Below, piece by piece: positions 8,187-27,346 of a DNA stretch of 64,000 bases. The notes beneath the pieces are model-generated. The model worked only from the letters and a program-made list of their open reading frames with translations, ran no database searches and had not been told where the DNA came from. A program made the translations under genes and the position numbers. This DNA is from Candidatus Thiodiazotropha sp. (GTDB lineage Bacteria; Pseudomonadota; Gammaproteobacteria; Chromatiales; Chromatiaceae): the NCBI GenBank assembly GCA_050291245.1, contig JBNKJP010000067.1, positions 31,636-95,635 on the forward strand, written 5' to 3'. Positions within the stretch are counted from its first letter, which is position 1, and the number at the start of each line of letters is the position of its first letter.

Positions 8187-8215
8187 TCCACCTTGCCTGT
8201 AACTCCGTTAGCGAT

Positions 8216-8992: not shown

Positions 8993-9059
8993 TGTTCAGT
9001 ACCCGGTGCTATGATCCACCAATGGATCGGGATGACGGCTGACATAATACTCAAATACC

Positions 9060-10564: not shown

Positions 10565-11809
10565 TCAGGCCGGGTTGGCCAGCTGTGCTCGCTGGCGTTC
10601 ACCCCGGTCCGCGGTGTTGAACAGCGCCCGCTCTGTTTCTAACATGGCCCACTCCAAGGCAGCCGCGCGTCGTTGCCGCTGAAAGCCTGTCCGCAGCACT
10701 TGTCGGCATTGGCCCGTGTCGATGGGTTGACCACAGAGATATCGCCGACCCGATAGGTACTCCGACTGATGGGCTTGCCACCAGGCGATCAGCTTGTCCC
10801 GCTCAGGCCAGGGCAGATCCTCGTCATCATCCAGCGCCACCCGTTCATCCTCGGGGTCTTCCGTGGGGCCGGCCTCGAAGCCCTCCGGCATCTCACCATC
10901 CAGATCGAGATAGGCCAGATCGAGCCCGGTGATCAGGCTGACCGCCTCACCCGCTACCCGGGCCAGCGGGGGCAGCTTCAACTGTTCAAGCAGCCAGGGG
11001 ATTGAGGCCGGATCGCCGAACCAGCCGCTCGCCTCGACCACTTCCCGACTTTCGGGCTGTTGCTGACTCAAATCGCGCAGACAGGAGACCGATACCGCGT
11101 GATCCGGATTGCGCATCAGCAGTTCGAGTGCCCTTCTCTGGTAGACAGAGGGTTTCCCGGCAAATTGCAGCAGCTCATCGACGCCTTCGGGACTGCCCAG
11201 CAGGCAGGCCGACCAGGCCGCCCAGAAACGGCAACCCTCATCCCTGTCCCTAAGCTGTGACAACAGTTGTGCCTGCAGGTCATGACGGCGAATCTCCCCC
11301 ACCGAGCGCAAAGCCCGGGCACGTACTTGCGGATCCTCGTCCTCCAGTCCGTCCTTGAGATACGGGCCGCAATCCACTCGACGGATCGCACAGGCGCTGA
11401 GTCCGATCCGGCGCAGCAGAGGCTCAGGGGATTGCAGCCAGGCGCGAACATGACCCTGTAGCCGGTCCCGCTCGACCCAGCCCAGAGCGGAAATCAGTCC
11501 CCGAGCGGTTTCGGGGGCTGCGCGGATCACTTCCAGCACCGGGGCCAGACCCGCTTCCACGGCACTGTCCAGGGCCATGAAGGCAGCGCTGAACACCTCC
11601 CCCTTTTCCTGCAATCCCAGTTGATCGAGACACTGTTTCCAACCCGCCGCACCCGCCACCCTCAGGCCATCCAGATGGGCATCGATGCGGGACTCCAGGT
11701 GAATCAGGTCATCCAGGTTATAGTGCGGCGCGACGACCGCCTCGTCTCGCAGAAGCCAGAGAAAGGCGGACTCTTCAGCGTGCTGCGAAACGATATTCTC
11801 AAGGATCAC
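10565..11809 (-). CDS. TIGR02270 family HEAT-repeat T6SS-associated protein (PA0101-like)
   Basis: N-terminus IVSQHAEESAFLWLLRDEAVVAPHY...RIDAHLDGL; HEAT repeats; GEAVSLITG; C-terminal RQRRAAALE. Confidence 0.85.
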   Translation of the reverse strand: MILENIVSQHAEESAFLWLLRDEAVVAPHYNLDDLIHLESRIDAHLDGLRVAGAAGWKQCLDQLGLQEKGEVFSAAFMALDSAVEAGLAPVLEVIRAAPETARGLISALGWVERDRLQGHVRAWLQSPEPLLRRIGLSACAIRRVDCGPYLKDGLEDEDPQVRARALRSVGEIRRHDLQAQLLSQLRDRDEGCRFWAAWSACLLGSPEGVDELLQFAGKPSVYQRRALELLMRNPDHAVSVSCLRDLSQQQPESREVVEASGWFGDPASIPWLLEQLKLPPLARVAGEAVSLITGLDLAYLDLDGEMPEGFEAGPTEDPEDERVALDDDEDLPWPERDKLIAWWQAHQSEYLSGRRYLCGQPIDTGQCRQVLRTGFQRQRRAAALEWAMLETERALFNTADRGERQRAQLANPA

Positions 11810-11828: not shown

Positions 11829-12317
11829 TCAGTTGATCTGTACCGAACCGCCTTTGATGCGATTCAGCCCCGAGGAGCGGCTGAAAATGGAGGCGCCGCG
11901 TAAAATGATCTTCCCGGCCCGGGTCAGGGTAATGCTCGATTTGCCGCACTTGAGTACGATTTCCCGTTGCGCGGAGAGTACCAGACGCTCACCGTCGAGC
12001 TCAGCTTCCGCTCGTTCGGGCACCGGCTCAAGCGGCCGGGGATGCTGTAGGCGACCGATGATGAGAGGACGCTGTGGGTCGCCGTTTTCGAACAGCAACG
12101 CAACCTCCTTGCCGAGATCCTCCGGTTGAAAATCGAGGGTGCTTTTGGCACACATCGCCTCCTCCTGGGGATTGCCGGGAAACACCACCCGGGGTCGACC
12201 CTGGGGGTCCATACCCACCAAAATCCCGATCACCACACCCTCCAGTCTGCGGGACTGAGCCGTATCCTTCTGATCTGACGTGTTAGATGTTTTACTCACG
12301 ACGCTACCTCTCGACAC
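11829..12317 (-). CDS. DUF6484 (PA0096-like) VgrG-associated protein
   Basis: VALLFENGDPQRPLIIG and LVLSAQREIVLKCGKSSITLTRAGKIILRG...RIKGGSVQIN; directly downstream of vgrG. Confidence 0.8.
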   Translation of the reverse strand: MSRGSVVSKTSNTSDQKDTAQSRRLEGVVIGILVGMDPQGRPRVVFPGNPQEEAMCAKSTLDFQPEDLGKEVALLFENGDPQRPLIIGRLQHPRPLEPVPERAEAELDGERLVLSAQREIVLKCGKSSITLTRAGKIILRGASIFSRSSGLNRIKGGSVQIN

Positions 12318-12325
12318 TAGGGCCC

Positions 12326-14512
12326 TTAGTTCTGTAGTATCTTCTTGCCTTTGATGATGACATCCTTGCTCGCCTTCATATTGACCTTACCCGAACCCTT
12401 CACTGTGATGTTCTTGCCTTCGAGGATGATGGTACCGTCCTTTTTCATAGTGATCGAGGCCTTGCCAGTCTTGATCACGACCGCGTCACCGGCTTCGATG
12501 GAGAGGGTCTTGCCCACCGTGACGTTAAGGTCATCGCCCACCGCCAGATTATCGCTTTTACCCACCGATACGGAGCGGGCGTCTCCCACGGTGCAAGCAC
12601 TGCTCTTGCCGATGGTCACCGACTCGCTGCCGCCAACCTGAGCGGCGCGGGAGGCACCCACGGTTTCATTCATACCGGCACCGACACTGACCTGGTAGCC
12701 GGCGCCAATGCTCAGGGCCTTGGCCGCGCCGATGGTTTCCGTCTTGTTGATCCCCACGGTTTCGCTTTTGTTACTGCCGATATTGACGCTACGGTTGCTG
12801 CCGATCGAGACACTCTCATTGACACCGACGGTCTCGGTGCGATCGACGCCGATGGTGATGGTCTCGTTATTGCCCACCTCTTCGGTTCGATCGTGACCGA
12901 TGGTGATGGTCTCGTCATTACCCACGCTTTCCGTGCGGTTGACCCCGACCTGGGTGGTTTCATTGTTCTCCACCAAATTATCCTGATTCTTCTCCGCGTG
13001 GATATAGACTTGCTCCTCGCCTTTTTTGTCCTCAAAGCGGATCTCATTGAAGTTCTCCCCGGATCCGCCCTTGCTGCTGCGGCTCTTGATGCCGCTCTGG
13101 GTCATGTTCGCGGGCAATCCGTAGGGCGGCATCTGATCCGCGTTATAGACCCGGCCGGTGATGATCGGACGATCCGGATCCCCTTCCAGGAACTCCACGA
13201 TCACCTCCTGGCCGATACGTGGAATATGCATCGCCCCCCAGTTCTTGCCGGCCCAGACCTGCGCCACCCGGACCCAGCAGGAACTGTTCTCGTCACGAGT
13301 GCCGTAGCGATCCCAGTGAAACTGCAGCTTCACCCGGCCATATTCATCGGTATAAATCTCCTCCCCTGACTTGCCGACCACCACCGCGGTCTGGGGACCC
13401 TGCACCATGGGTTTTGGAGTCGTCCGGGCACTGCGGTATTTTTCCTTGCTGTCGGTACAGCGAAATTCGCAGGTGAATACCGGCGCTTCTGCAATCTCGG
13501 GCACCGATTCGAAGGCGTCGGAATGCAGAAAACAGGTGGTGGCGGTAATCAGATATTCCCGATTCTGATCGCCACGGGGGTGCTCGATGAGGTTGAACAG
13601 CCCCCCGGCGCAGAGTCCCCGGGCATTTGCTTCGCCCTCGAGCACCTCATAGCCGCCCTGAATCTCTTCGATGCGCTGGCGTGCATAGGAATCCCCGTCT
13701 CCGGTCGCTTCATACTCACCGGGATAGTCATAGATCTCATAGTCGGAATGACTGTAGGGACGGGGCTGAAGCGCGTTCACCAAGAGATCTGATTTCGGTT
13801 TCTTGAAATCGTAATCCGTATGCGCGTAACGGCCGGGTTGCACGCTCTTGGTGAATGACCAGCTGTGGATGTAATCCCGCCAACGAGAACTGCCCGTCTC
13901 AGTCGGCGGAACGTAGGGTACGTCACTATAAGCCTCGAGCGGTGCGTGGGAACTGTAGTCGTCACAGAGTATCAGGGTGTGTTTTCCCGGGACATGGGTA
14001 AAAAAATAGTAGATCCCTTCTTGCTCCATCAGGCGACTGACGAAGTTGAAATCCGTTTCGCGGTATTGCACACAGTATTCCCACTCACGGTAGGAACCAC
14101 TGAGTTTATCCTCGAAGTCAGTGAAGCCGTTGTCCCGAAATACCTCTTTGATGATGTCAGGGACCTTCTTGTTCTGAAAGATACGGCAGTCCGAGGTACG
14201 GGTCAGGAACCACAACCAGGGACTCAGGATGGCGCGATAATGGGCAAAGTAGGCGATATGACCGATCTGTGTAAATCGACTGACAAAACCGTTGAAATAC
14301 CGTTTGCTCCCCTCGACCATATCCACCTCTACGGTCATGGGTTTTCCCAGCAGGTCATCATGACTGATCGATTCATTGTCACTCAACAGATCCACCGTGA
14401 ACTCAAACAAACGCCCCTGTTCCTCACGTGCCTCCATACGCAGGATCAAGAGTTCATCCGCTCCCAAGGGGGTTTTGATCTGTAACTGTCGATTACTTTG
14501 TGTAAACGCCAT
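12326..14512 (-). CDS. vgrG: Type VI secretion spike protein VgrG (TssI) with gp5 C-terminal beta-repeats and no effector extension
   Basis: CVQYRETDFNFVSRLMEQEGIYYFF; PRIGQEVIVEFLEGDPDRP; HAEKN. Start MAFTQSNR at 14512 has an AGGAG RBS; 728 aa. Confidence 0.97.
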   Translation of the reverse strand: MAFTQSNRQLQIKTPLGADELLILRMEAREEQGRLFEFTVDLLSDNESISHDDLLGKPMTVEVDMVEGSKRYFNGFVSRFTQIGHIAYFAHYRAILSPWLWFLTRTSDCRIFQNKKVPDIIKEVFRDNGFTDFEDKLSGSYREWEYCVQYRETDFNFVSRLMEQEGIYYFFTHVPGKHTLILCDDYSSHAPLEAYSDVPYVPPTETGSSRWRDYIHSWSFTKSVQPGRYAHTDYDFKKPKSDLLVNALQPRPYSHSDYEIYDYPGEYEATGDGDSYARQRIEEIQGGYEVLEGEANARGLCAGGLFNLIEHPRGDQNREYLITATTCFLHSDAFESVPEIAEAPVFTCEFRCTDSKEKYRSARTTPKPMVQGPQTAVVVGKSGEEIYTDEYGRVKLQFHWDRYGTRDENSSCWVRVAQVWAGKNWGAMHIPRIGQEVIVEFLEGDPDRPIITGRVYNADQMPPYGLPANMTQSGIKSRSSKGGSGENFNEIRFEDKKGEEQVYIHAEKNQDNLVENNETTQVGVNRTESVGNDETITIGHDRTEEVGNNETITIGVDRTETVGVNESVSIGSNRSVNIGSNKSETVGINKTETIGAAKALSIGAGYQVSVGAGMNETVGASRAAQVGGSESVTIGKSSACTVGDARSVSVGKSDNLAVGDDLNVTVGKTLSIEAGDAVVIKTGKASITMKKDGTIILEGKNITVKGSGKVNMKASKDVIIKGKKILQN

Positions 14513-14752
14513 GCAATGCTCCTGCCCGATTTTGCTAAGCATAGCAAACAAATAAAGCCATGACAGTGCGCTATGGGATCGATCATTTCCGCTTGAATCC
14601 GCCATCCGAGGAGCCACATGCCGACTAATGTGCGGTTTACACCTTGTAAGTCCCGCGAAATCGTCAAACAATAGGACAAACCCTGGCATGCCTATGCATT
14701 CGGGTTTGAAGGGATGGGGTTCAGACGAACAACCTTATAGGAGTCTATTGAC

Positions 14753-16147
14753 GTGGCGGAACGCATGACCATGACGTTCGACCTGGGAAAGCCGGGCCAG
14801 AGCGTCTCAGCCTCAGGACAGAAACCCCACGTCATCGTGATCATAGGTGATTTTCAGGGTAACGGTTTTCCTGAAAAGCCCCGCAATGTGGGTAAGCCAA
14901 GGCAAGTGGAGATTGAAACCCTGGATGCTCTGATGGCGAAACTGAAACCCTCGATACCCTGTCCCTGGTCAACGGATACCGCCTCTCCCGTACTGAGTTT
15001 CGAGCGGCTCGAACAGTTCCATCCGGACCATCTCATTAACGAACTGCCATCCCCGGACAGTTGGCCGGTACATACTGGGACGACGCCTGAAACGCCGCCG
15101 CAAACGGCGTCTCAATCCAATCCCGCAATTACAGAGGAATCTGATCAGCAGACCCTTTCAAGACTGCTGGGAAATCAACCCCTGGGAGTGTCATCACCCT
15201 CTGGAGGCACATCGGGAAAGACCCGTAGGCAACAAACCCTGATTGACTCAGTGGTGCAAAAACTGACCGAGCGGGCATCAACCGACAGCGTATCAGAGCG
15301 GCACAATACCCCGACCGAATCCACTCCCCAGATTGCGGGTTCCGCTTTGCGTGGCTTGCTGCATGAGCCTGCGTTTCAACAACTCGAGTCACGCTGGCGC
15401 AGTCTCGATTGGTTGCTGCGCAACAACCCCTTCGAAACGGACTGCCCGGTCTATCTGCTCGATTTTCCGCCACTCACGACTGACAACACCTTATTAAACG
15501 ATGATCAATGCAGCAAAGCGCTTGATGCATTGCAGCAACAGCTTGTCCACCTTAATTCATCAGAAAACCAATTGATTCTGATTTTCGACGAATGGTTTAA
15601 ACCGGTGCCACAAGACATCCTCCTTCTCGAACAGTTGGCGCGGATCGCGCAACACCTGAGTGCACTTATGATCACAGCCGCGGATGTCTCGTTTACAAAC
15701 ATTGAGGCAGATACGCAAACCGGACACTCCTGGGCTGCATTTCGGCAACAGGACAAGGCGGGATATATCATGCTGAGTCTTCCAGGGTTGCTATTACGCC
15801 TGCCCTATGGACGTCGCTATGACCCGATCGAGCACGCTGAATTTGAAGAGTGGACCGGACCTGAGAGTCGAGCAAATCTGTTATGGGGCAGCCCCGCCTA
15901 TGCGTTGTCCCTGATTCTGCTGTGCGAACGAATGGAAGACCGGACTTTTCAAGAACGACGCATCGACGATTGGCCCTCCTTCGCCTATCAACAAGACGAC
16001 GAGACGTTGTTACAACCCGCAACGGAGTCACTCTACTCGGAACAGGACCTGCAGCAACTGCTTTCAATAGGACTGGTGCCCGGACTGGGCAGTCGTCGTC
16101 AGAACAGTGTGCAGTTCCCCTGGTTGCAAACGCTCAAGGGCAATTGA
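14753..16147 (+). CDS. Non-canonical TssB/TssC chimeric sheath-like protein
   Basis: The N-terminus aligns by eye to this window's TssB (VIVIIGDFQG; LSFERLEQFHPD). The remainder aligns to TssC (LLHEPAFQQLESRWRSL; LRLPYGRRYDPIE; LLWGSPAYAL) but lacks the TssC C-terminal domain. Confidence 0.75.
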   Translation: MAERMTMTFDLGKPGQSVSASGQKPHVIVIIGDFQGNGFPEKPRNVGKPRQVEIETLDALMAKLKPSIPCPWSTDTASPVLSFERLEQFHPDHLINELPSPDSWPVHTGTTPETPPQTASQSNPAITEESDQQTLSRLLGNQPLGVSSPSGGTSGKTRRQQTLIDSVVQKLTERASTDSVSERHNTPTESTPQIAGSALRGLLHEPAFQQLESRWRSLDWLLRNNPFETDCPVYLLDFPPLTTDNTLLNDDQCSKALDALQQQLVHLNSSENQLILIFDEWFKPVPQDILLLEQLARIAQHLSALMITAADVSFTNIEADTQTGHSWAAFRQQDKAGYIMLSLPGLLLRLPYGRRYDPIEHAEFEEWTGPESRANLLWGSPAYALSLILLCERMEDRTFQERRIDDWPSFAYQQDDETLLQPATESLYSEQDLQQLLSIGLVPGLGSRRQNSVQFPWLQTLKGN

Positions 16148-16329: not shown

Positions 16330-17433
16330 TTGGACAACAGGGTGCGCAGATTGAATCCGGCATCGGATTCCAGGCAACACCCAAGCGAATCGGGGGATAC
16401 GGGTTTGACAGGCATCATCGACATCGATCAACTGCTGAGCAGCGTTTCCGATGAAGCGCCTTCCGGTCCCGACATGGAGTACGATCCCCTGTTTGGAGAA
16501 ATGGAACGGGCGGCAGCCTCGAAAGAGGAACAGCAGTATGGTGATACCATCATCCCGGCCGAGGAGCCTGACTGGAAGGCGCTGAAAAACAAGTCTCTCG
16601 AGATACTCGCCCAAAGCAAGGATCTGCGAGCCGCGATCTATCTCACCCGAGCGCTGATCCATACCGATGGCTTTGCCGGACTCTGCGATGGCTTGAGCCT
16701 GCTCAAGGAGCTGTTGGTCGCCTACTGGGACAGCATCCATCCGCAACTCGATCCGGACGATAACAACGATCCCACCCTGCGTATCAATACCTTGATCAAC
16801 CTGTGCGACCCTACGGACTTTCTCGCCGCTGTCAATCGGGTGCCGGTGGTTGCCTCGAATGTAATAGGACAGTTCAGTTTCCGGGATCTGCAGATCGCTG
16901 ACGGCATGATCGAACGCTCGGACAGCGACACCAAAGAGCTCAGTAGTGATTTGATCGACGCCGCGTTCCGCGAAGTCGGCGATGCGCAGAATCAGGAAAC
17001 CCTGAAGCAGATTAACGCCGCATCCCAATGTGTCACCGACATAGAAACGCACCTCAACCAGCAGGTGGGTATCGATCAATCCCCGGACCTGAGCGCCCTG
17101 TCCAACCTGTTGAATCAGATCGCCCAGGAGACATCCCGGCGCAGCGGTGTCGGCACCGTTGCCGCAGACACCCCGGAGGGAACCCCGATGGGGGTGGACA
17201 CCACGGCATCAGTGGAAGCCGTCTCCGGTGCGATCAACAGCCGAGAGGATGTGGTGCGAATGCTCGAGCGTATCAACGAGTACTACACTAAGAACGAACC
17301 TTCCAGTCCGGTTCCGCTTCTGCTGGATCGAGCCAAACGGCTGGTGAAGATGGATTTTCATGAAATCGTCCAGGATCTGGCACCGAGCGGCATGTCCTAC
17401 TTTGATTTCCTGTGGAAGCCGGAAGATCGTTAA
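16330..17433 (+). CDS. tssA: Type VI secretion protein TssA (ImpA_N domain)
   Basis: GPDMEYDPLF; EEPDW; SKDLRAAIYL; C-terminal SREDVVRMLERINEYYTKNEPSSPVPLLL. An alternative TTG start lies at 16405. Confidence 0.92.
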   Translation: MDNRVRRLNPASDSRQHPSESGDTGLTGIIDIDQLLSSVSDEAPSGPDMEYDPLFGEMERAAASKEEQQYGDTIIPAEEPDWKALKNKSLEILAQSKDLRAAIYLTRALIHTDGFAGLCDGLSLLKELLVAYWDSIHPQLDPDDNNDPTLRINTLINLCDPTDFLAAVNRVPVVASNVIGQFSFRDLQIADGMIERSDSDTKELSSDLIDAAFREVGDAQNQETLKQINAASQCVTDIETHLNQQVGIDQSPDLSALSNLLNQIAQETSRRSGVGTVAADTPEGTPMGVDTTASVEAVSGAINSREDVVRMLERINEYYTKNEPSSPVPLLLDRAKRLVKMDFHEIVQDLAPSGMSYFDFLWKPEDR

Positions 17434-17502
17434 GCATCGTGTCGAATATAACAAACAACCATACCTAGAATAGTGGTATCGAGAAACCAAGAGAGGTAGA
17501 CC

Positions 17503-18033
17503 GTGGCAAAAGAGAGCAGCCAAAAATTCGTAGCCCGAAATCGGGCGCCCCGCGTCCAGATCGAATATGACGTAGAACTCTACGGGGCCGAAAAGATGAT
17601 CCAGCTACCCTTTATCATGGGGGTGATGGCGGATCTCTCCGGCAAGCCGGAAGACCCCCTGGCACCGGTAGCGGACCGCAAGATGCTGGAAATCGATGTG
17701 GACAATTTCGATGAACGCCTCAAGGCCACGAAACCCCGGGTGGCGTTTCGGGTGCCGAACACCCTGACCGGTGAAGGCAACATCAATGTGGACATCAGTT
17801 TCGAAAACATGGATGACTTCTCCCCCGCCGCGATCGCCAAGAAGGTCGGTGCCCTGCGCCAACTGCTCGACGCCCGCACCCAACTCGCCAACCTGTTGAC
17901 CTATATGGACGGCAAGTCCGGCGCGGAAGAGCTGATCGCCAAGGCCATCAACGATCCGACCTTGCTGCAATCCCTGGCCTCCGCGGCCAAACCCGATGAC
18001 GCATCGTCCGAAGAGTCCAGTTCCGAGGAGTAA
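17503..18033 (+). CDS. tssB: T6SS contractile sheath small subunit TssB (VipA)
   Basis: RNRAPRVQIEYDVE; LPFIMGVMADLSG; DDFSPAAIA. Confidence 0.97.
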   Translation: MAKESSQKFVARNRAPRVQIEYDVELYGAEKMIQLPFIMGVMADLSGKPEDPLAPVADRKMLEIDVDNFDERLKATKPRVAFRVPNTLTGEGNINVDISFENMDDFSPAAIAKKVGALRQLLDARTQLANLLTYMDGKSGAEELIAKAINDPTLLQSLASAAKPDDASSEESSSEE

Positions 18034-18036
18034 CCC

Positions 18037-19536
18037 ATGGCTGAAACTGAAAACCAACAAGCTGCCGCCGGCGAGTCCGTCACCCATGTGGCGCCCGATG
18101 AATTTTCGGCGCTGCTTCAGCAGGAATTCAAACCCAAGACCGAGCGGACCAAGGAAGCCGTTTCCAGTGCCGTGCAGACCCTGGCGGAACTGGTCCTGAA
18201 GGAGTCCAGCACGATCACCGACGATGCGGTGGAAACCATCGAGGGGATCATTGCCGAGATCGACCGCAAGCTCACCGAACAGATCAATCTGATCCTGCAT
18301 CACGAGGATTTCCAACGCCTTGAAGGCACCTGGCGGGGCCTGCACTATCTGGTGAACAACACCGAGACCGACGAGACGCTGAAGATCCGGGTGATGAACA
18401 TCACCAAAAAGGAACTGGGCAAGACCCTGAAGAAATTCAAGGGTACCGCCTGGGATCAAAGCCCCATCTTCAAGAAGGTCTATGAAGAGGAGTACGGCCA
18501 GTTCGGCGGCGAACCCTACGGCTGCCTGGTCGGTGACTACCATTTCGATAATTCACCGATGGATGTGGAGCTGCTCACCGGTATGTCGCAGGTCGCCGCT
18601 GCCGCCCACGCCCCGTTCATCGCTGGCGCCGCCCCTACGGTCATGCAGATGGACAGTTGGCAGGAACTGGCCAACCCCCGTGACCTGACCAAGATCTTCC
18701 AGACCCCGGAATACGCGGCCTGGCGCTCCCTGCGTGAATCCGAGGATTCCCGTTACATCGGTCTGGCCATGCCCCGCTTCCTCTCACGCCTGCCCTACGG
18801 GGCCAAGACCGACCCGGTGGAGGAGTTCGATTTCGAAGAGGACACCGAAGGCGCCCAGCACGACAAGTACACCTGGTCCAACTCCGCCTTCGCGATGGCG
18901 GTAAACATCAACCGGGCCTTTAAACTGTATGGCTGGACCACCCGGATTCGCGGTGTCGAGTCGGGGGGTGCGGTGGAGAGCCTGCCGACCCACACCTTTC
19001 CAACCGACGACGGTGGCGTGGACATGAAGTGTCCCACCGAAATCGCCATCTCCGATCGGCGTGAGGCCGAGTTGGCGAAGAACGGGTTCATGCCGCTGCT
19101 GCATCGCAAGAACTCCGATTTCGCTGCTTTTATCGGGGCCCAGTCGCTGCAAAAACCGTCGGAGTACGACGACCCAGATGCTACGGCCAACGCCAATCTG
19201 GCCGCCCGTCTGCCCTATCTGTTTGCCAGTTGCCGTTTCGCTCACTACCTGAAGTGCATCGTTCGCGACAAGATCGGTTCCTTCAAGGAACGTGACGATA
19301 TGGAGAAGTGGCTGAACAAGTGGATTCAGAAGTACGTCGAGCCTAGTCCGGGTACGGCTTCTGAAGAAGATAAGGCACGTAAACCCCTGGCCGCGGCCGA
19401 GGTGGTGGTGTCTGAAGTGGAAGGAAACCCGGGCTACTACACGTCAAAATTTTTCCTTCGCCCACATTATCAGTTGGAAGGATTGACGGTATCCCTGCGT
19501 CTGGTATCCAAGTTGCCGTCGGAAAAAACGGCCTGA
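18037..19536 (+). CDS. tssC: T6SS contractile sheath large subunit TssC (VipB)
   Basis: FQRLEGTWRGLHYLV; EYGQFGGEPYG; PRFLSRLPYG; RPHYQLEGLTVSLRLV. Confidence 0.97.
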   Translation: MAETENQQAAAGESVTHVAPDEFSALLQQEFKPKTERTKEAVSSAVQTLAELVLKESSTITDDAVETIEGIIAEIDRKLTEQINLILHHEDFQRLEGTWRGLHYLVNNTETDETLKIRVMNITKKELGKTLKKFKGTAWDQSPIFKKVYEEEYGQFGGEPYGCLVGDYHFDNSPMDVELLTGMSQVAAAAHAPFIAGAAPTVMQMDSWQELANPRDLTKIFQTPEYAAWRSLRESEDSRYIGLAMPRFLSRLPYGAKTDPVEEFDFEEDTEGAQHDKYTWSNSAFAMAVNINRAFKLYGWTTRIRGVESGGAVESLPTHTFPTDDGGVDMKCPTEIAISDRREAELAKNGFMPLLHRKNSDFAAFIGAQSLQKPSEYDDPDATANANLAARLPYLFASCRFAHYLKCIVRDKIGSFKERDDMEKWLNKWIQKYVEPSPGTASEEDKARKPLAAAEVVVSEVEGNPGYYTSKFFLRPHYQLEGLTVSLRLVSKLPSEKTA

Positions 19537-19577
19537 TGCCCGACATCTCATCTCATCTTTATTTGGAGGATTGAACA

Positions 19578-20066
19578 ATGGCAGTTGACATTTTTATGAA
19601 AATCGAAGGCGCCGACGGTGAGAGTACCGACGACAAACACCAAAAATGGTGTGAACTCGTCAGTTTCAGTCACGGTGTCTCCCAACCCGTATCCGGCGCC
19701 AGTGGCACTGGCGGCCGAACCGGCGGACGAGCCAATTTCGAACCCTTTGTTGGGATTAAGGAGATCGACAACGCTACACCGGACCTGAACATCAAGTGCG
19801 CCAAGGGTGAACACATCCCGAAGGTCGAGGTAGAACTCTGCCTGGCTACCGGGGACAAGCACACCTTCATGAAGTACACCCTGGAAGACGTCATCGTCTC
19901 CTCGGTGACACCTGGAGGCAGCACGAGTGACGAATCCAAGCCGTATGAAACCGTGGCCTTCGCCTACGGCAAGATCAAATGGGAATACACCCCCATCGAT
20001 CACACCGGCAAACCGGGTTCGACCACCGATCGCACCTGGAGTCTGGAAAAGAACAAACAGGAATAG
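19578..20066 (+). CDS. hcp: T6SS tube protein Hcp (TssD)
   Basis: DIFMKIEGADGESTDDKH; KEIDNATPDL; ETVAFAYGKIKWEY; position after tssC. Confidence 0.96.
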   Translation: MAVDIFMKIEGADGESTDDKHQKWCELVSFSHGVSQPVSGASGTGGRTGGRANFEPFVGIKEIDNATPDLNIKCAKGEHIPKVEVELCLATGDKHTFMKYTLEDVIVSSVTPGGSTSDESKPYETVAFAYGKIKWEYTPIDHTGKPGSTTDRTWSLEKNKQE

Positions 20067-20088
20067 TTGCATCGCTTCTCTGTAGAGA

Positions 20089-20134
20089 CCGGCCTGCCCT
20101 CCGCCAGTTTGGCGACAGGGCAGGCCGGGTTTTG
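20089..20134 (+). terminator. Rho-independent terminator after hcp
   Basis: CCGGCCTGCCCT...AGGGCAGGCCGG stem followed by GTTTTG. Confidence 0.7.
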
Positions 20135-20365
20135 TGCGTTCTCCCGGTCGATGGGCGTCGACAGGCTGGGGCCGCGCAAGCCGGACGCTTGCCGACTCCG
20201 CCAGACACAGGATGATGAGATCCGTCGACGAAACGGCAGGGGTACGTGAAGTACCGGGAGACCCGCAGAACCGTTAAACTGTTCAATCCTCGAATCGGAT
20301 CCGGACGCCTGTCGGGCCATTGAGACCCGACAGGCATTCCGGCCCCGACAACCCGGCAGAGACGA

Positions 20366-21175
20366 ATGCAAGCGGAAAAACTATTACAACAAGGTGAACT
20401 GGAAGCGGCTCTGGATGCCTTGCAACAAACTATCCGTAAAGAACCCGCGAATGCCAAATGGCGGGTGTTCCTGTTTCAATTGCTGTGTATCACCGGTGAC
20501 TGGGAACGGGCGCTGAAACAACTCCAGGTATCCGCGGACCTGGACTCCCTCGGCATCCCGATGGCCCAAACCTACCGTGAGGCAATCCGTTGCGAACTGT
20601 TCCGCAGGGAGGTGTTCGACGGACTGCGCTCCCCGCTGATTTTCGGCGATCCGCCCCAGTGGGTGGCGTTACTTCTCGAAGCGTTGAAACTCACCGCCCA
20701 AGGGGAAGTCGCCCAGGCGGATCAGTTACGCCAGCAGGCCTTCGATCAGGCGCCCACCACCCCGGGACAGATCGACGGTCAGGCGTTTGAATGGATTGCC
20801 GATGCCGATTCCCGGATCGGTCCGGTACTGGAGGCCATCGTCAATGGCCGCTACTACTGGATTCCGGTGCAGCGTCTCAAGCAGATGACCATCGATGCCC
20901 CGGAGGATCTGCGGGATCTGGTCTGGGTGCCCGCCCACCTGACGTTTGCAAACGAAGGTGAAGTGGTGGCCCTGTTGCCCGCCCGCTATCCCGGTACCGA
21001 AGCGACCCAGGACAATACCCTGAAACTCTCGAGAAAGACCGAGTGGCAGCATCACCACGAAGACCTGTACACCGGACTCGGACAACGTATGCTGACAACC
21101 GATCAAGACGAGTACCCGCTGCTGGGAGTCCGCCAGATCCAGTTCCAGAGCGAGGCGGACGCAGAGGCGAAATGA
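20366..21175 (+). CDS. tagJ: T6SS accessory protein TagJ (ImpE/SciE)
   Basis: RVFLFQLLCITGDWERA; WIADADSRIGPVLE; DLRDLVW; GLGQRML. Confidence 0.92.
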   Translation: MQAEKLLQQGELEAALDALQQTIRKEPANAKWRVFLFQLLCITGDWERALKQLQVSADLDSLGIPMAQTYREAIRCELFRREVFDGLRSPLIFGDPPQWVALLLEALKLTAQGEVAQADQLRQQAFDQAPTTPGQIDGQAFEWIADADSRIGPVLEAIVNGRYYWIPVQRLKQMTIDAPEDLRDLVWVPAHLTFANEGEVVALLPARYPGTEATQDNTLKLSRKTEWQHHHEDLYTGLGQRMLTTDQDEYPLLGVRQIQFQSEADAEAK

Positions 21176-21209
21176 GATCATCGAAACCGCCCTACCCAAT
21201 GGAGAGCCT

Positions 21210-21728
21210 GTGCCCTTGAAGGCTACGAAAAATCAGCATTTGCAACCCTCCCTGCTCGACCGTCTGACCGATGAAGAGCCGGAGAAAAGCAAGGAGTCCC
21301 AGGACAAACGCGTGATGTCCATGCGCCGCTTACGCCAGTCGGTGCTGCGGGATCTGGCCTGGCTGCTCAATACCACCAACCTGGCCACCACCGAGGATCT
21401 GGAACCCTACCCCGAGGTCGCCCGTTCGGTGCTCAATTTCGGCATCCGCGAGCTTTCGGGACACCTGGTCTCGGGTATGGACCTGAATCAGCTGGAACGC
21501 ATGGTGCGCCAGGCGGTGCAGGAGTTCGAGCCACGCATCCTGCCTAACTCGGTGCGGGTCCGCTCCGTACGGGACAGCGCCAAGGAGAGCCATAACCGGC
21601 TCATGTTCGAGATTGAAGGCCAGCTCTGGGCCGTACCTACACCGACCCACATGCTGATCAAGACCCAAATCGATTTCGAAGAGGGGGGCGTGAGCATCTC
21701 CGACGCCTTCGGCGCGGGTCGGGAGTAG
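21210..21728 (+). CDS. tssE: T6SS baseplate subunit TssE
   Basis: PSLLDRL; DLAWLLNT; SVLNFG; FEPRI. Confidence 0.93.
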   Translation: MPLKATKNQHLQPSLLDRLTDEEPEKSKESQDKRVMSMRRLRQSVLRDLAWLLNTTNLATTEDLEPYPEVARSVLNFGIRELSGHLVSGMDLNQLERMVRQAVQEFEPRILPNSVRVRSVRDSAKESHNRLMFEIEGQLWAVPTPTHMLIKTQIDFEEGGVSISDAFGAGRE

Positions 21729-21732
21729 CCCG

Positions 21733-23604
21733 ATGGACCCGAGACTGCTCAAGTATTACAACCAGGAACTGCAATATCTGCGGGAGATGGGCGCGGAATT
21801 CGCCCATGCCTATCCGAAGATCGCTAGCCGCCTGACCCTGGACGAGTTTGAATGCGCCGACCCCTATGTGGAGCGCCTGCTGGAGGGCTTCAGTTTCCTC
21901 ACCGCGCGTATCCAACTCAAACTCGACGAGGAGTTTCCCCGCTTCACCCAGCACCTGATGGAGCGGGTCTACCCCCACTACCTGGCTCCGACACCGTCCA
22001 TGATGGTGGTACAGATGCAGACCGATCTGCTCGATCCCTCCCTGGGAGATGGGTTTCTGCTGCCCCGGGAATCGACTTTGCGCAGTCGCCTCGGCAAGGG
22101 TAATCAGACCCCCTGCATCTACCGCACGGCCCAGGACGTACGACTCTGGCCAATCTCCATTGAAAGTGTCGACTATCTGCCAAGTCCGGCGGCGATCGCC
22201 CTGGCGGGTATCGGTAAGCAGCCCGGCGCCAAGGCCGCCCTGCGGTTTCGCCTCAATACCGCCGGAGACATCCCCTTCAACCGGCTGGAACTGGACCGCC
22301 TGCCCCTGTTTCTCAGCGGCGGCGACCCGGGTAAACACGCCTTCGAGGTGCTCGCCGGACATACCCTGCGACTGATCGGTCGGGCCACGGATTCGGAAAC
22401 TCATCACAGCACCCGGCAGCCCTGTCCGGTGCGCATCATGGGCTTCGAGGAAGAGGAGGCGCTGCTGCCCTACGGTCCCCGTTCGTTCCAGGGATACCGC
22501 TTCCTGGCGGAGTACTTCGCCCTCTCCAATCGCTTCATGTTCCTGGAGCTGAGGGATCTGCAGTCCGTGATCCCCAATTGCGACAGCCAACAACTGGAGC
22601 TGTTTGCCCTGTTGGACACCACCGAACCGCGACTCGAAGGGGCCTTGAGTGAGAAGAACTTCCTGCTCTACTGCACCCCTGCGATCAACCTGTTTCCCAA
22701 ACGCGCGGACCGAATCCACCTCAATGACAGCTTCGCAGAACATCATGTCCTGCCGGACCGCACCCGGCCGATGGACTACGAAGTCTACGAGGTCACCGGG
22801 GTGAAGGGTGTGGGCAGCAACACCGGCGAGAACCAGGTCTTTCATCCGTTCTACGCCAGCAATGACCTGATTGCCTCGGACCAGCCACGGGCCTATTACG
22901 TAACCCACCGGCTCCCCAGACTGCTGTCGTCGAAACAGCAGCGCGAGGGGGCGCGTACCGGTTATGTGGGCAGTGAAGTGTTTCTCTCGATCGTGGATGC
23001 GGACGAGGCGCCCTATCAGAGCGACATGCGTCAGTTGGCCGTGACGACTCTGTGCACCAACCGGGACCTCCCCATGCATATTCCCCTGGGTCAGAGCGAC
23101 ACCAGCTTTACCCTGGACAGCAGCACTCCGGTGAACCAGATTCGCTGTATCGGCTCCCCCACCCGACCCCGACCCTCCACGGCCCAGGGTCAGATCAGCT
23201 GGCGTCTGATCAATCACCTGTCACTGAACTACCTGTCCCTGGCGGGAGAGGATCAGGAACAGAGTACCGCGGCGTTGAAGGACTTCTTGCAATTGTATGC
23301 CGATACCAGCGATCCGGCCCTGCGCAAGCAGGTCGACGGGGTGCTTTTGATCCAGGCCAAACCGGTCAACCGGCGCCTGCCCAGTCCCGGGCCCATTTCG
23401 TTCGGCCACGGCCTCGAAATCACCCTGACCCTGGATGAGTCCGCCTTCGAGGGCAGCAGCGCCTTTCTGTTCGGCGCCATGATGGAGCAGTTCTTTCGCC
23501 GTTACACGGCGATCAACTCCTTTACGGAAACCGTAATCGTCACCCAACAACGTGGAGAGATCATGCGATGGCCGGTCAGGCTGGGTCTGAGACACACGCT
23601 CTAG
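21733..23604 (+). CDS. tssF: T6SS baseplate subunit TssF
   Basis: YYNQELQYLREMGAEFA..YPKIA; DPYVERLLEGF; LYCTPAINLF; WRLINHLSLNYLSL; INSFT. Confidence 0.97.
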   Translation: MDPRLLKYYNQELQYLREMGAEFAHAYPKIASRLTLDEFECADPYVERLLEGFSFLTARIQLKLDEEFPRFTQHLMERVYPHYLAPTPSMMVVQMQTDLLDPSLGDGFLLPRESTLRSRLGKGNQTPCIYRTAQDVRLWPISIESVDYLPSPAAIALAGIGKQPGAKAALRFRLNTAGDIPFNRLELDRLPLFLSGGDPGKHAFEVLAGHTLRLIGRATDSETHHSTRQPCPVRIMGFEEEEALLPYGPRSFQGYRFLAEYFALSNRFMFLELRDLQSVIPNCDSQQLELFALLDTTEPRLEGALSEKNFLLYCTPAINLFPKRADRIHLNDSFAEHHVLPDRTRPMDYEVYEVTGVKGVGSNTGENQVFHPFYASNDLIASDQPRAYYVTHRLPRLLSSKQQREGARTGYVGSEVFLSIVDADEAPYQSDMRQLAVTTLCTNRDLPMHIPLGQSDTSFTLDSSTPVNQIRCIGSPTRPRPSTAQGQISWRLINHLSLNYLSLAGEDQEQSTAALKDFLQLYADTSDPALRKQVDGVLLIQAKPVNRRLPSPGPISFGHGLEITLTLDESAFEGSSAFLFGAMMEQFFRRYTAINSFTETVIVTQQRGEIMRWPVRLGLRHTL

Positions 23605-24608
23605 GTCTGTTCGACCAACTGCGCCAGGGTCCCTATCGCTTCGACTTCTATCAGGCGATGAGACGGCTCGAATGCGCCTACCCGGACAACCCCCGTCTGG
23701 GCAGGTCGCGCCATCCCCGGAATGACCCTATTCGCCTGGGACAGGACCCGACCATGGCATTCCAACCCTCCACCCTCTCCTCGTTTCAAGAGGGGAAGGA
23801 TGGCGTGCCGCCACGCCTGGGGAGTTACTTCCTCGGTCTGTTCGGACCCAACGGCCCCCTGCCCCTGCACCTCACGGAATATGTCTATGAGCGCAAGAAG
23901 AACCATCGGGACCCGACCCTGGTCCAGTTTCTCGATCTGTTCCACCACCGGCTGCTGAGCCTTTTCTACCGGGTCTGGGCGGACAGCCAACCGACGGTGA
24001 GCTACGACCGTCCGGACCAGGACCGTTTCGGCGATTACCTGGGATCCCTGTTCGGTATCGGTACGGAGTATCTGCAGCGACGCGATGCCATGCCCGACCT
24101 GGCGAAACGCCACTACGCGGGCCGTCTGGCATGCCAGACCCGCAACGCCGAGGGACTCGAGGCGATCCTGCGGGACTTCTTCCGTCTGCCGGTACGCATC
24201 GATGAATTTGTCGGCTGCTGGATCGATCTGCCGGACAACAGCCGCTGCCGGCTGGGGCTCTCCGAGGAGATCAGCGCTCTGGGTGCCACCATCATCCTGG
24301 GGGACCGGGTGTGGTTGGGGCAACAAAAATTTCGTATCGTCCTGGGGGCCCTGAATTTTGCCGACTACCAGCGCATGCTGCCCGGGGGCGATAGTATGAA
24401 ACGACTGATCGCGGTGGTGAAAAACTACATCGGCGACGAATTGGACTGGGAACTGCAATTGATCCTGGCCGAAGCGGAAATCCCGGCACCACAACTCAAC
24501 GGCACGAGCCGGCTGGGCTGGACCAGTTGGCTGGCACAACAACCCCTGGGACGGGACGGTGACGATCTCACCCTTCATCCCCTTGAACTGAGAGGCCTGA
24601 CATCATGA
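23568..24608 (+). CDS. tssG: T6SS baseplate subunit TssG
   Basis: FDFYQAMRRLE; FLGLFGPNGPLPLHLTE; FLDLFHHRL; RLGWTSWL. Confidence 0.96.
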   Translation: MAGQAGSETHALGLFDQLRQGPYRFDFYQAMRRLECAYPDNPRLGRSRHPRNDPIRLGQDPTMAFQPSTLSSFQEGKDGVPPRLGSYFLGLFGPNGPLPLHLTEYVYERKKNHRDPTLVQFLDLFHHRLLSLFYRVWADSQPTVSYDRPDQDRFGDYLGSLFGIGTEYLQRRDAMPDLAKRHYAGRLACQTRNAEGLEAILRDFFRLPVRIDEFVGCWIDLPDNSRCRLGLSEEISALGATIILGDRVWLGQQKFRIVLGALNFADYQRMLPGGDSMKRLIAVVKNYIGDELDWELQLILAEAEIPAPQLNGTSRLGWTSWLAQQPLGRDGDDLTLHPLELRGLTS

Positions 24609-27346
24609 GCGAGATCAACCGCGTTGCCCTGTTCGGAAAATTGAACAGCCTCGGCTACCGGGCCATAGAGAGTGCCACCGTATTCTGCAAGATGCGCGGC
24701 AACCCCTATGTCGAACTGGTCCACTGGTTCCATCAGATCCTGCAGTTGCAGGATTCGGACCTGCACCGCATCATCAAGCAGTTCAATCTGGAGCCTTCCC
24801 GTCTGGCCAAGGACATCACCGAACACCTGGACGCCCTGCCCCGGGGCTCAACCTCGATCTCGGACCTCTCCTCCCACGTGGAGGAGGCCACGGAACGGGG
24901 CTGGGTCTATGGCACCCTGATGTTCGGTGATGCCCAGGTACGCACCGGCTATCTGATCGTGGGCATTCTCAAGACCAACAGCCTGCGTAACGCCCTGGTG
25001 CGCATCTCCGACGAGTTCAAGAAGATCAGCGCCGACACCCTCACCGAGCGTTTCGCCGAAGTGGTGGCAGGCTCCCCCGAAGAGGCCATGCGGGCCAATG
25101 ACGGCTTCCAGATCGGTGGCGGGGCCGCCCCGGGAGAAGCCAGTGGCGCCATGGCGCCGGCCCAGATGGGCAAGCAACAGGCCCTGCATCAGTTCTCCGT
25201 GGACCTGACCGAACGGGCGCGAAAGGGCGAGATCGACCCCATCGTCGGGCGTGACGACGAAATTCGCCAGATCGTCGATATCCTGATGCGACGGCGGCAG
25301 AACAACCCTATCCTCACCGGCGAGGCCGGGGTGGGCAAGACCGCTGTGGTAGAGGGTTTCGCCTTGCAGATCGCCCGGGGCGAGGTACCGCCACCGCTGC
25401 AGGATGTCACCCTGCGGGTACTCGATGTGGGGCTGTTGCAGGCGGGCGCCAGCATGAAGGGCGAATTCGAAAACCGCCTCAAGCAGTTCATCGAGGAGGT
25501 GCAGTCCTCCGAAAAGCCGATCATCCTGTTCATCGACGAAGCACACACCCTGATCGGCGCCGGGGGCAGTGCCGGGACCGGCGATGCGGCCAACCTGCTC
25601 AAACCCGCCCTGGCGCGGGGGACCCTGCGCACCATCGCAGCCACTACCTGGGCGGAGTACAAAAAGTACATCGAGAAGGATCCGGCCCTGACCCGGCGTT
25701 TCCAGGTGGTGCAGGTGGACGAACCGGACGAGGCGCGGGCCATCCGCATGATGCGGGGGGTTGCCGGGACCCTGGAACAACATCATCGGGTGCAGATCCT
25801 CGACGAGGCCCTGGAGGCTTCGGTGCGGCTCTCTCATCGCTACATTCCCGCCCGACAGCTGCCGGATAAGTCAGTGAGTCTGCTCGACACCACCTGCGCC
25901 CGGGTCGCTATCAGCCAGGCCGCGGTGCCCGCCGAGGTGGACGACAGTCGGCGGCGCATCGAAGCCCTGGAGACGGAGCTGGAGATCATCGGCCGGGAAA
26001 AGGCCATCGGCCTGGACACGGCGGAGCGGGAAGGTTCCACCGAAGAAAAACTGGAACAGGAACGGGCCCGTCTGGAACAACTGACCGAACGCTGGGAAGC
26101 GGAGAAATCCCTGGTCGAACAGGTGCTGAAAATCCAGCGCAGGCTCAAGGGAGAGCCGGAAGCGTCTGACACACCTGTGGTCAGTGCCGATTCAACCGAT
26201 GACAAACCCGCGGAACCGACTGACACTGCGTCTGCCGATACCCCCGAGAACGTTTCACCCGAGGCCCTGCTCAGTGAATTGGGTGGGTTGAAAGAGCAGT
26301 TGCAGACTTTGCAGGGGGAATCCCCCCTGATCCTGCCCAGTGTCGATGCCCAGGCGGTGGCCTCGGTGGTGGGGGACTGGACCGGTATCCCGGTGGGCCG
26401 GATGGTGAAAAACGAAATCGAGACGGTTCTGAATCTCAGCGACACTCTGGCCAGGCGGGTCATCGGTCAGGACCACGCCCTGGAGATGATCGCCCGGCGC
26501 ATTCAGACCTCCCGGGCCAATCTGGACAATCCCAACAAACCCATTGGTGTGTTCATGCTCTGCGGACCCTCCGGCGTGGGCAAGACCGAGACGGGGCTGA
26601 CCCTGGCGGAATCCCTCTACGGCGGGGAGCAGAACGTCATCACCATCAATATGAGTGAATTCCAGGAGGCGCATACCGTCTCCACCCTGAAAGGGGCGCC
26701 TCCGGGCTATGTCGGCTACGGTGAGGGTGGCATTCTCACCGAAGCGGTGCGCCGCAAACCCTACAGCGTGGTGCTGCTCGATGAAGTTGAGAAGGCCCAT
26801 CCGGACGTGCATGAGATCTTCTTCCAGGTCTTTGACAAGGGTTGGATGGAGGATGGGGAGGGCCGCCATATCGACTTCAAGAACACCCTGATTCTACTTA
26901 CCTCCAACGTGGGCACGGAGATGATCGACAACCTCTGCAAGGATCCGGAGCTGATACCGGAACCCGCGACCATCGCCCAGTCACTGCGTGATCCCTTGCA
27001 GAAGGTCTTCCCCGCCGCCTTACTCGGTCGTCTGGTGGTAATACCCTACTATCCGCTCAGTGACGAGGTGTTGGCGAAGGTGGTGCGCCTGCAACTCGGC
27101 CGGATTCAGGCCCGTATCCTGGAGAACCACGGCATTCCCCTGGAGGTCGACGACGAGGTGATCAAATTGATCATCAGCCGCTGTACAGAAGTCGAGAGTG
27201 GCGCAAGAATGGTGGATGCGATACTTACCAATACACTACTGCCCGAAATCAGCCGTCACATACTGATCGAACAGATGGAGGGACGGCCTATCGCGCGCAT
27301 CGGCATCAACGTGGAGGAGAACGAGTTCAACTACCATTTCAGCTAG
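24605..27346 (+). CDS. clpV: T6SS AAA+ ATPase ClpV (TssH)
   Basis: Two Walker A motifs (GEAGVGKT, GPSGVGKT); LVHWFHQIL N-terminus; GAPPGYVGYGEGG. Confidence 0.97.
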   Translation: MSEINRVALFGKLNSLGYRAIESATVFCKMRGNPYVELVHWFHQILQLQDSDLHRIIKQFNLEPSRLAKDITEHLDALPRGSTSISDLSSHVEEATERGWVYGTLMFGDAQVRTGYLIVGILKTNSLRNALVRISDEFKKISADTLTERFAEVVAGSPEEAMRANDGFQIGGGAAPGEASGAMAPAQMGKQQALHQFSVDLTERARKGEIDPIVGRDDEIRQIVDILMRRRQNNPILTGEAGVGKTAVVEGFALQIARGEVPPPLQDVTLRVLDVGLLQAGASMKGEFENRLKQFIEEVQSSEKPIILFIDEAHTLIGAGGSAGTGDAANLLKPALARGTLRTIAATTWAEYKKYIEKDPALTRRFQVVQVDEPDEARAIRMMRGVAGTLEQHHRVQILDEALEASVRLSHRYIPARQLPDKSVSLLDTTCARVAISQAAVPAEVDDSRRRIEALETELEIIGREKAIGLDTAEREGSTEEKLEQERARLEQLTERWEAEKSLVEQVLKIQRRLKGEPEASDTPVVSADSTDDKPAEPTDTASADTPENVSPEALLSELGGLKEQLQTLQGESPLILPSVDAQAVASVVGDWTGIPVGRMVKNEIETVLNLSDTLARRVIGQDHALEMIARRIQTSRANLDNPNKPIGVFMLCGPSGVGKTETGLTLAESLYGGEQNVITINMSEFQEAHTVSTLKGAPPGYVGYGEGGILTEAVRRKPYSVVLLDEVEKAHPDVHEIFFQVFDKGWMEDGEGRHIDFKNTLILLTSNVGTEMIDNLCKDPELIPEPATIAQSLRDPLQKVFPAALLGRLVVIPYYPLSDEVLAKVVRLQLGRIQARILENHGIPLEVDDEVIKLIISRCTEVESGARMVDAILTNTLLPEISRHILIEQMEGRPIARIGINVEENEFNYHFS

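Follow-up and report, generated by a model that had tools for sequence, protein, structure and literature searches.

A single-chain TssB-TssC paralogue without domain 1 beside a type VI secretion cluster of Candidatus Thiodiazotropha

What might a type VI secretion system (T6SS) that already has separate genes for both sheath subunits, TssB and TssC, do with a further protein that resembles the two of them joined in one chain? The question is raised by a locus in a stretch of 64,000 nucleotides from Candidatus Thiodiazotropha sp. (GenBank assembly GCA_050291245.1, contig JBNKJP010000067.1, positions 31,636 to 95,635 of the forward strand), referred to here as the window, with positions counted from its first letter. 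The open reading frame (ORF) at 14753-16147 on the plus strand encodes a protein of 464 amino acids, P0001, which an earlier note on this DNA had described as a TssB-TssC chimera lacking the C-terminal domain of TssC. We consider it nearly certain that P0001 is a single-chain TssB-TssC paralogue with accessory status; the part of the sheath protomer that it lacks is domain 1.

Domain searches find both subunits in the one chain. The Pfam model VipB (PF05943) matches residues 198-455 of P0001 (E 5e-25, 88.6 bits, profile positions 14-294 of 301), and T6SS_VipA (PF05591) matches residues 3-99 (E 3.4e-4, profile positions 7-108 of 155) with 20.9 bits, slightly below the gathering score of 24. VipB_2 (PF18945) has no Pfam match in P0001; the window TssC matches it at E 2.8e-44, and the window TssB and TssC match the VipA, VipB and VipB_2 models strongly. 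P0001 remains far below the cut-offs of the NCBIfam TssC equivalog TIGR03355 (75.2 bits vs 271.5) and of the TssB model TIGR03358 (18.4 bits vs 97.25). In BLASTP, residues 156-462 align with residues 34-372 of the window TssC (24% identity, E 2e-14) and residues 23-91 with residues 34-108 of the window TssB (E 0.01); these alignments contain all the segment pairs listed in the earlier note. The VipA-profile match that the note expected at the N-terminus is found at the family level: VipA is detected in 16 of 22 homologues (best E 3e-15), VipB in all 22 and VipB_2 in none, and a 22-sequence profile aligns both with solved TssB/VipA chains (E 2e-11 to 2e-10, profile 13-135 on VipA 20-153) and with solved TssC chains (E ~1e-66, profile 121-469 on TssC 5-366). 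The missing part of TssC, put by the note at about 100 residues, amounts to ~127 residues, corresponding to the VipB_2 domain, in P0001 and all 22 homologues.

The order of the two parts is seen on a hidden Markov model (HMM) built from 165 family sequences. Family members reach 450-690 bits across HMM positions 1-503 and the sequences closest to P0001 (L002/L003) 371-389 bits; canonical TssB scores 57-79 bits over positions ~17-135 and canonical TssC 250-310 bits over positions ~135-495. The canonical subunits thus map one after the other, indicating that P0001 corresponds to TssB plus TssC in the same order. The AlphaFold2 model of P0001 (predicted local distance difference test, pLDDT, 78; predicted template modelling score, pTM, 0.75) is confident in the N-terminal β-strands and the TssC-like domain and disordered at residues 1-21, 106-129, 140-157 and 173-189; the model of P0014, a main-family member of 509 amino acids, reaches pLDDT 81 and pTM 0.81. 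Foldseek, run with the P0001 model against the PDB, places large sheath subunits of T6SSs in all nine top positions (E 2e-16 to 1e-10). Pfam, the PDB profiles, the family HMM and the AlphaFold and Foldseek results together uphold the proposed chimera without the TssC C-terminal domain.

Read along the chain (all coordinates on the plus strand), P0001 begins with an N-terminal arm (residues 1-22, 14753..14818) that is 95% identical in amino acids to close relatives and has pLDDT <50, as expected of a segment ordered only in a complex. Its RMTMTFDLG alternates in the same way as the TssB β1 donor strand RVQIEYDVE, the consensus being xxRxxFxFxxG in the family and PRVxIxYxVE in canonical TssB; the protein starts three residues before β1, without a TagJ-binding extension, and shares its N-terminal start, MAERMTMTFDLGKP, with its closest homologues. 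The TssB/VipA-like β-strands and helix that represent the TssB share of domain 2 follow at residues 23-100 (14819..15052, pLDDT 80-96) and carry GDFxG, DxD and DFHPD motifs. A fast-evolving Pro/Ser/Thr linker (residues 101-128, 15053..15136) with 11-57% identity stands in for the TssB C-terminal helices that the main family retains; these are located at 110-135 in the P0014 model and deleted in the P0001 subgroup, where the alignment has a gap. The linker ends at a helical motif, ESDQQTLSRLLGN (residues 129-141, 15137..15175), which aligns with the TssC N-terminal helix that serves as the ClpV handle. Residues 142-190 (15176..15322) are the counterpart of TssC residues ~34-75 in the BLASTP alignment with the window TssC and include the domain 3 helix equivalent to TssC1 E39-E54, modelled at 158-176. 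The remainder (residues 191-464, 15323..16144) has the TssC/VipB N-terminal, domain 2 fold according to Pfam and Foldseek, with pLDDT mostly >90, and the C-terminus of P0001 coincides with the boundary between domain 2 and domain 1. The description of the middle region as a Pro/Ser/Thr linker holds for its composition (42% of residues 99-190 against 24% over the entire protein) but not for its role as a plain spacer, as it contains the TssC N-terminal helices and the constrained motif.

P0001 is one member of a large family. A word-indexed search returned 21 relatives of 440-526 amino acids with 23-82% identity, and when 1.84 billion cluster representatives were searched exhaustively with a profile, 8029 matched, the best 150 of these all being full-length with E <=1e-118. 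Scanning GTDB with one genome per species confirmed at least 422 loci, one to a species, the majority in Acidobacteriota and the others in Desulfobacterota, Nitrospirota, Gemmatimonadota, Planctomycetota, Rokubacteriota, Binatia, Gammaproteobacteria (Competibacter, Sedimenticolaceae) and Burkholderiales. Plasmid-borne members occur in Ruegeria, Leisingera, Phaeobacter, Parasedimentitalea and Eleftheria terrae; the roseobacter protein TssCL is the one published member. In a tree of the shared VipB-type region, one branch with an SH-aLRT (Shimodaira-Hasegawa-like approximate likelihood ratio test) support of 100 separates 38 of 38 family members from 30 canonical TssC plus ImpD, a TssC-derived paralogue of rhizobia. 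A locally made chimera is thereby ruled out, as P0001 belongs to an ancient clade that spans many phyla. Branches within the family greatly exceed those of canonical TssC in length, that from the window to L002 being 0.73 for the paralogue vs 0.038 for TssC. The only database names for family members are 'contractile sheath large subunit' or 'ImpC', which is a systematic mis-annotation; it swells tssC counts and can mislead T6SS typing from TssC trees.

Apparent matches to both halves of P0001 were also returned by tblastn from plasmids of Ralstonia and Rhizobium etli 8C-3; these are canonical tssB and tssC in the same frame and do not belong to the family. On the megaplasmid of Ralstonia solanacearum SL3022 (CP023017, L005:11944-13884) a full-length TssB-TssC fusion of 646 amino acids is annotated, with VipA, VipB and VipB_2, which may come from a lost stop codon or a sequencing error. 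In R. etli 8C-3 (L007:7896-9944), tssB and tssC are in-frame with only a stop and one codon between them.

Could the gene nevertheless be a decaying duplicate, that is, a non-functional tssB-tssC remnant? Such a remnant would agree with the loss of one domain, with evolution faster than that of the core genes and with the lower GC content at third codon positions (GC3). The gene has a GC content of 0.541 and a GC3 of 0.578 against 0.68-0.81 in the other T6SS genes, in keeping with the earlier description of it as more AT-rich than the core cluster. The ratio of non-synonymous to synonymous substitution rates (dN/dS), which is expected to be near 1 under decay, was estimated by the Nei-Gojobori method between the window and the metagenomic relatives L090, L091 and L002. 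It was 0.22-0.28 for the P0001 gene, and in the same pairs 0.04-0.07 for tssB, 0.04 for tssC, 0.05-0.07 for vgrG and 0.10-0.16 for tssA. Selection on the P0001 gene is purifying but relaxed. By region, dN/dS was 0.41-0.57 in linker 101-128, 0.22 in the TssC-like domain and ~0 in ESDQQTLSRLLGN, with dS of 0.23-2.2 and 92-100% identity of this motif within the variable linker. In addition, the reading frame is intact in all relatives, the architecture is kept in the at least 422 species, and the predicted fold is confident. The dN/dS values and the conservation of the family rule out a decaying duplicate or pseudogene, an explanation to which we assign hardly any probability.

The gene lies next to a full set of separate sheath genes. 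On its 3' side, core T6SS genes occupy 16330..27346 on the plus strand according to Pfam, NCBIfam and the ORF map, including tssB (17503-18033), tssC with VipB_2 (18037-19536), tagJ (20366-21175) and clpV (24605-27346), and the complete order is tssA-tssB-tssC-hcp-tagJ-tssE-tssF-tssG-clpV-fha-tssJ-tssK-tssL-tssM-tagF-pppA, ending at 37146. The N-terminus of the window TssB, MAKESSQKFVARNRAPRVQ, is near-identical to the TagJ-binding peptide of HsiB1, a resemblance by which we assign the system to the Pseudomonas aeruginosa H1 type. Among the GTDB loci with at least 8 kb on each side, other T6SS genes were present at 37 of 49, a canonical tssC within 10 kb at 23 of 49 and tagJ at 20 of 49. Distant members adjoin a TagJ-type cluster in Acidobacteria bacterium Mor1, stand beside tssK and tssB in Acidobacteriota and lie between clpV and vgrG in Desulfobacterota. 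The neighbours 5' of family members include tssK (8), clpV (8) and vgrG (5), and those 3' include tssB (15) and vgrG (7), most neighbours being unlabelled; a single conserved neighbour gene was not found. Residence in a T6SS beside separate tssB and tssC is the pattern of an accessory component, not of a replacement sheath. A closely similar tssA-tssB-tssC-hcp-tagJ-tssE cluster on plasmid pTs485 of Candidatus Thiodictyon syntrophicum (L009) has no paralogue annotated 5' of tssA and carries anti-phage DUF1156/DUF3780/DUF499 genes in its place, implying that the paralogue is dispensable in at least some systems of this class.

What such a component might do can be considered from the geometry of the sheath. 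In the P. aeruginosa structure, domain 1 is formed by the C-terminal strands of TssC in a gp25-like 'handshake' and accepts one strand from the C-terminus of a neighbouring TssC and one from β1 at the N-terminus of TssB; the connections between sheath subunits all run through this domain (PMC5807055). In domain 2, TssB β2-β3 and TssC strands interleave in one β-sheet, and domain 3 is a helical bundle to which TssB contributes its C-terminal helix and TssC its N-terminal helices (PMC5807055). The linkers extend to the ring nearer the baseplate, and TssE, which resembles domain 1, has been proposed as the linker acceptor for the first ring (PMC5813253). P0001 retains a β1-like N-terminus, the entire domain 2 and the TssC N-terminal helices; it has neither domain 1, which in the canonical sheath also touches the Hcp tube, nor the TssC C-terminal arm, and the P0001 subgroup has also lost the TssB C-terminal helix. 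With the donor strand kept and the acceptor domain lost, P0001 could donate one strand, accept none and not self-polymerise. That it is unable to polymerise alone is, in our estimate, very probable.

The second clue is the motif. In V. cholerae, a TssC N-terminal helix of the LLDEII type docks in the N-domain of ClpV (PMC4239648). The family segment '…esdqqtLsrLLG…' aligns in the PDB profile with LSLLDEIL of Myxococcus xanthus TssC and LSLLDRII of Azotobacter vinelandii TssC; the motif is LLDEII-like in most family members and reads TLSRLLG in P0001. In the homologue alignment, G140 never varies, and conservation of L135 and L139 is at least 90%. Two flavours of the motif are seen among 80 GTDB loci. 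In Acidobacteriota and Desulfobacterota it reads G[SN]LLD[EQ]hhE, alongside a cognate TssC with …[SG]LLDQIVEQG at its start; in gammaproteobacterial and planctomycete members it reads ESDxxT[LI]xRLLG, alongside a TssC with DF[AS][AS]LL[QN]QE. In the roseobacter proteins there is an additional acidic extension, 560-800 residues long, in which Leisingera has 14 strict LDxLLGxL copies and Ruegeria 5, besides many looser copies; shuffled versions of the Leisingera extension contained 0.36 copies on average and never more than 3. Two further copies stand at the extreme C-terminus of the roseobacter proteins, and two C-terminal copies are present in Eleftheria terrae. The 165 closest family representatives contain no extra copies, so the arrays are lineage-specific, and P0001 has no strict LDxLLGxL copy outside its linker. 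For a short, disordered and strongly constrained element that is amplified in some lineages, a docking peptide is the simplest reading; from these sequence patterns, we rate the chance that the motif serves as a partner-docking handle as even. ClpV would be the obvious candidate reader.

TagJ is a different matter. The TssB peptide QKF[IV]ARNRAPRVQ binds TagJ in a crystal structure; it is present in the window TssB and absent from P0001. The earlier note had considered P0001 as a decoy for TagJ, and we reject this idea because P0001 has no QKFxARNRAPRVQ peptide; its suggestions of a cap, a length limit or a ClpV decoy are plausible. As a separate observation, Acidobacteriota loci with tagJ clusters (L014, L016, L018, L024, L025, L038, L040 and others) have a TssC that starts with [SG]LLDQIVEQG, which is of the LLDEII type. 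This conflicts with the statement of Förster et al. 2014 that TagJ co-occurs solely with TssC without an LLDEII-type motif.

Taken together, we propose that P0001 would be a functional accessory protein, low in abundance, that belongs to the H1-type, TagJ-containing T6SS next to it. As a protomer mimic it would dock on an exposed acceptor, which could be TssE or the distal face of the sheath as it grows; once docked, it would block the addition of any further ring. Present in substoichiometric amounts, it could thus act as a sheath cap, a terminator or an end marker, and the exposed helix motif would recruit or engage ClpV or another reader, marking the sheath for recycling. The low GC3 of the gene fits the weak expression that this would entail. 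We hold the general proposal, in which a protomer mimic present in few copies shows a ClpV-type handle and caps or marks the sheath, tentatively, at a little under an even chance; the specific version in which P0001 is a distal cap or terminator is possible but on the whole unlikely.

The main rival is that P0001 never enters the sheath. In this case it would be a soluble adaptor or buffer of ClpV or of the TagJ/ClpV pathway, a monomeric mimic of a contracted protomer that constantly shows the TssC N-terminal helix and thereby tunes ClpV availability or activity or brings ClpV elsewhere. This would account for a motif that is the most constrained element of the protein, sits within a disordered linker and aligns with the ClpV-binding helix of TssC, and the arrays of TssCL (5-14 strict copies plus the two at the C-terminus) and the pair in Eleftheria would suit multi-copy binding to a hexamer. 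However, it leaves the selection on the full domain 2 fold and the β1 arm unexplained, extra copies are found in 0 of the 165 closest representatives, and in the H1 class the ClpV1 N-domain alone is insufficient for interaction with the TssC homologue HsiC1; we judge it a serious but improbable alternative. A placement at the other end of the sheath would make P0001 a baseplate adaptor on TssE, forming a 'ring zero' by which the first sheath ring is started or gated, with TssE supplying the domain-1-like fold; parallels would be TssC40/ImpD or the specialised sheath paralogues in the first layer of extracellular contractile injection systems. TssE is indeed structurally homologous to sheath domain 1 and the proposed first-ring acceptor, Agrobacterium requires a second, non-redundant TssC paralogue for Hcp secretion, and the paralogue gene often adjoins tssK or tssB; but a subunit without domain 1 on TssE offers no acceptor and would block initiation, ImpD has a different architecture (VipB and VipB_2, no TssB part), and conserved adjacency to tssE was not seen, making this role distinctly improbable. 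Incorporation throughout the sheath by co-polymerisation would yield a mixed sheath of altered mechanics; in favour of this are the retained domain 2 and domain 3 helices, which provide lateral contacts in contracted sheaths, and the possibility, raised by Suria et al., of a sheath formed by TssCL in interaction with TssB and TssC. As the connections between subunits need the absent domain 1, the low GC3 argues against a bulk structural protein, and the evolutionary rate is ~19 times that of TssC, we give an alternative sheath subunit very little chance.

The proposed protomer mimic at the sheath end has evidence against it as well. The same ~19-fold faster evolution compared with the neighbouring TssC also fits a loosely constrained role, and 12 of the 49 well-flanked loci are without a detectable T6SS cluster. 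The N-terminal arm, on which docking would depend, is moderately conserved (R in 46% and F in 64% of members) and unstructured in the models, and without the TssC C-terminal arm P0001 would be tethered by one strand. The match between motif and TssC flavours may reflect only two clades and a single evolutionary event; the ClpV-handle argument is weaker for P0001 than for LLDEII-type members; and TssCL has been described in silico only.

TssA, TagA and TagJ account only in part for the control of sheath length and for ClpV recruitment in TagJ-class systems, and the family is a concrete candidate for either role, as it is donor-only and carries a helix aligned with the ClpV site. Extended to the whole family, the proposal would be that many T6SSs, in at least 8 phyla, carry a third, hitherto unrecognised sheath component, a natural chain-terminating protomer that plugs the last ring or TssE and displays a ClpV-recognition helix in 1 to 14 copies. 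We regard this generalisation as doubtful; if true, the protein would set sheath length or mark the end at which ClpV disassembly starts, and the roseobacter TssCL would be the form of it in which the motif is multiplied. Leisingera, Ruegeria, Phaeobacter and Eleftheria terrae are culturable carriers of the family.

Several features of the surrounding DNA complete the description of the locus. The P0001 gene starts with GTG, and a Shine-Dalgarno sequence, AGGAG (14739..14743, plus strand), was read 9 nt 5' of it; a scan for promoters and terminators gave no signal above chance. The sequencing runs that contain this stretch are all DNA runs. The ORF map bears out the divergent orientation of vgrG noted earlier. 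The vgrG gene (12326..14512, minus strand) has its likely true start, MAFTQSNRQLQ, at 14512, and the listed ORF (12326-14689, minus strand) includes a 59-codon N-terminal extension missing in relatives; with the start at 14512, the divergent intergenic region between vgrG and the P0001 gene measures 240 bp. After vgrG come a DUF6484 gene (11829-12317) and then a HEAT-repeat gene (10565-11809), and the arrangement of vgrG-DUF6484-HEAT with the paralogue recurs in L002, L003 and L090, from Candidatus Thiodiazotropha metagenome-assembled genomes and metagenomes. On the other side, the tssA ORF is listed from a TTG at 16330; relatives begin ~23-25 codons later (MGLTGIIDIDQL / LTGIIDIDQL), so the real gap 3' of the P0001 gene is probably ~250 bp. 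In the gammaproteobacterial loci L002:1-3399, L003:61-4433 and L065:13091-16021, a Sel1/caspase-like (Peptidase_C14) protein and an autotransporter are encoded near the paralogue-vgrG module. Two tandem tssK-like genes adjoin the paralogue in Acidobacteriota and Gemmatimonadota (L014, L024, L032, L040, L073, L047, L087, L088). A methyltransferase of 511 amino acids (MTS/Methyltransf_25; 8083-9618) overlaps the stop of the paralogue on a 30.7-kb JGI contig, and a TPR-methyltransferase (L001:11437-12744) adjoins it in Acidobacteria bacterium Mor1; these neighbours could hint at modification of sheath-related proteins.

Known factors that act at the distal end or in termination are the TssA caps and TagA in T6SSs and the cap proteins of phage tails and extracellular contractile injection systems. 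P0001 resembles them only in its proposed role of occupying the sheath end and stopping or coordinating polymerisation; they have no relation to it in sequence or fold and are not derived from the sheath, and the window also encodes a normal TssA. Closer are the canonical TssB/TssC pairs (VipA/VipB, HsiB1/HsiC1; PDB 3J9G, 5N8N, 5URW, 5MXN), which have the same fold and are encoded in the same cluster. P0001 is homologous, in order, to TssB from β1 to ~110 and then to TssC from the N-terminal helix through domain 2, but differs in being one chain and in lacking domain 1, the TssC C-terminal linker strand and the TagJ-binding peptide.

Agrobacterium likewise has, next to tssB and tssC in an imp cluster with tagJ, a further paralogue derived from TssC, and this TssC40/ImpD is essential for Hcp secretion and non-redundant with TssC41 (Lin et al. 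2013, PMC3702570). A precedent thus exists for an indispensable paralogue of this sort. However, ImpD of R. johnstonii pRL12 (L008:5541-6926) has VipB and VipB_2 and no TssB-like part, and its TssC N-terminus is lost. It aligns with the family over the VipB domain only and falls outside the family clade. Its architecture and its position outside the clade rule out equivalence with P0001.

The closest known system is TssCL, a long second TssC of roseobacter T6SS1 clusters that was described in silico as having VipA and VipB domains and of which no case was detected beyond Alphaproteobacteria (Suria et al. 2022, PMC9515649). Among the papers searched, no other uses the name TssCL, and no other reports of fused or truncated TssC paralogues were found. 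Both TssCL and P0001 show a weak VipA match, VipB and no VipB_2, and both are encoded beside separate tssB and tssC in a TagJ-type cluster. TssCL differs in its length of 1136-1684 amino acids, its acidic extension with LDxLLGxL repeats, its two C-terminal motif copies and, in the published annotation, a second VipA domain identical to TssB; P0001 has one divergent motif copy, neither a long acidic N-terminal extension nor a second VipA, and no TssB C-terminal helices. The C-terminal 470-580 residues of TssCL are nevertheless a true family member. An hhalign comparison of the family profile with the C-terminal 584 residues of Leisingera TssCL gave a probability of 100% (E 1.3e-49, 449 columns), tblastn gave 34-37% identity, the Ruegeria ORF reaches 448 bits with the family HMM, and Ruegeria TssCL lies inside the family clade. 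On these alignments P0001 is a short-form relative of TssCL, and the TssCL family is far wider than published, with at least 422 species beyond Alphaproteobacteria.

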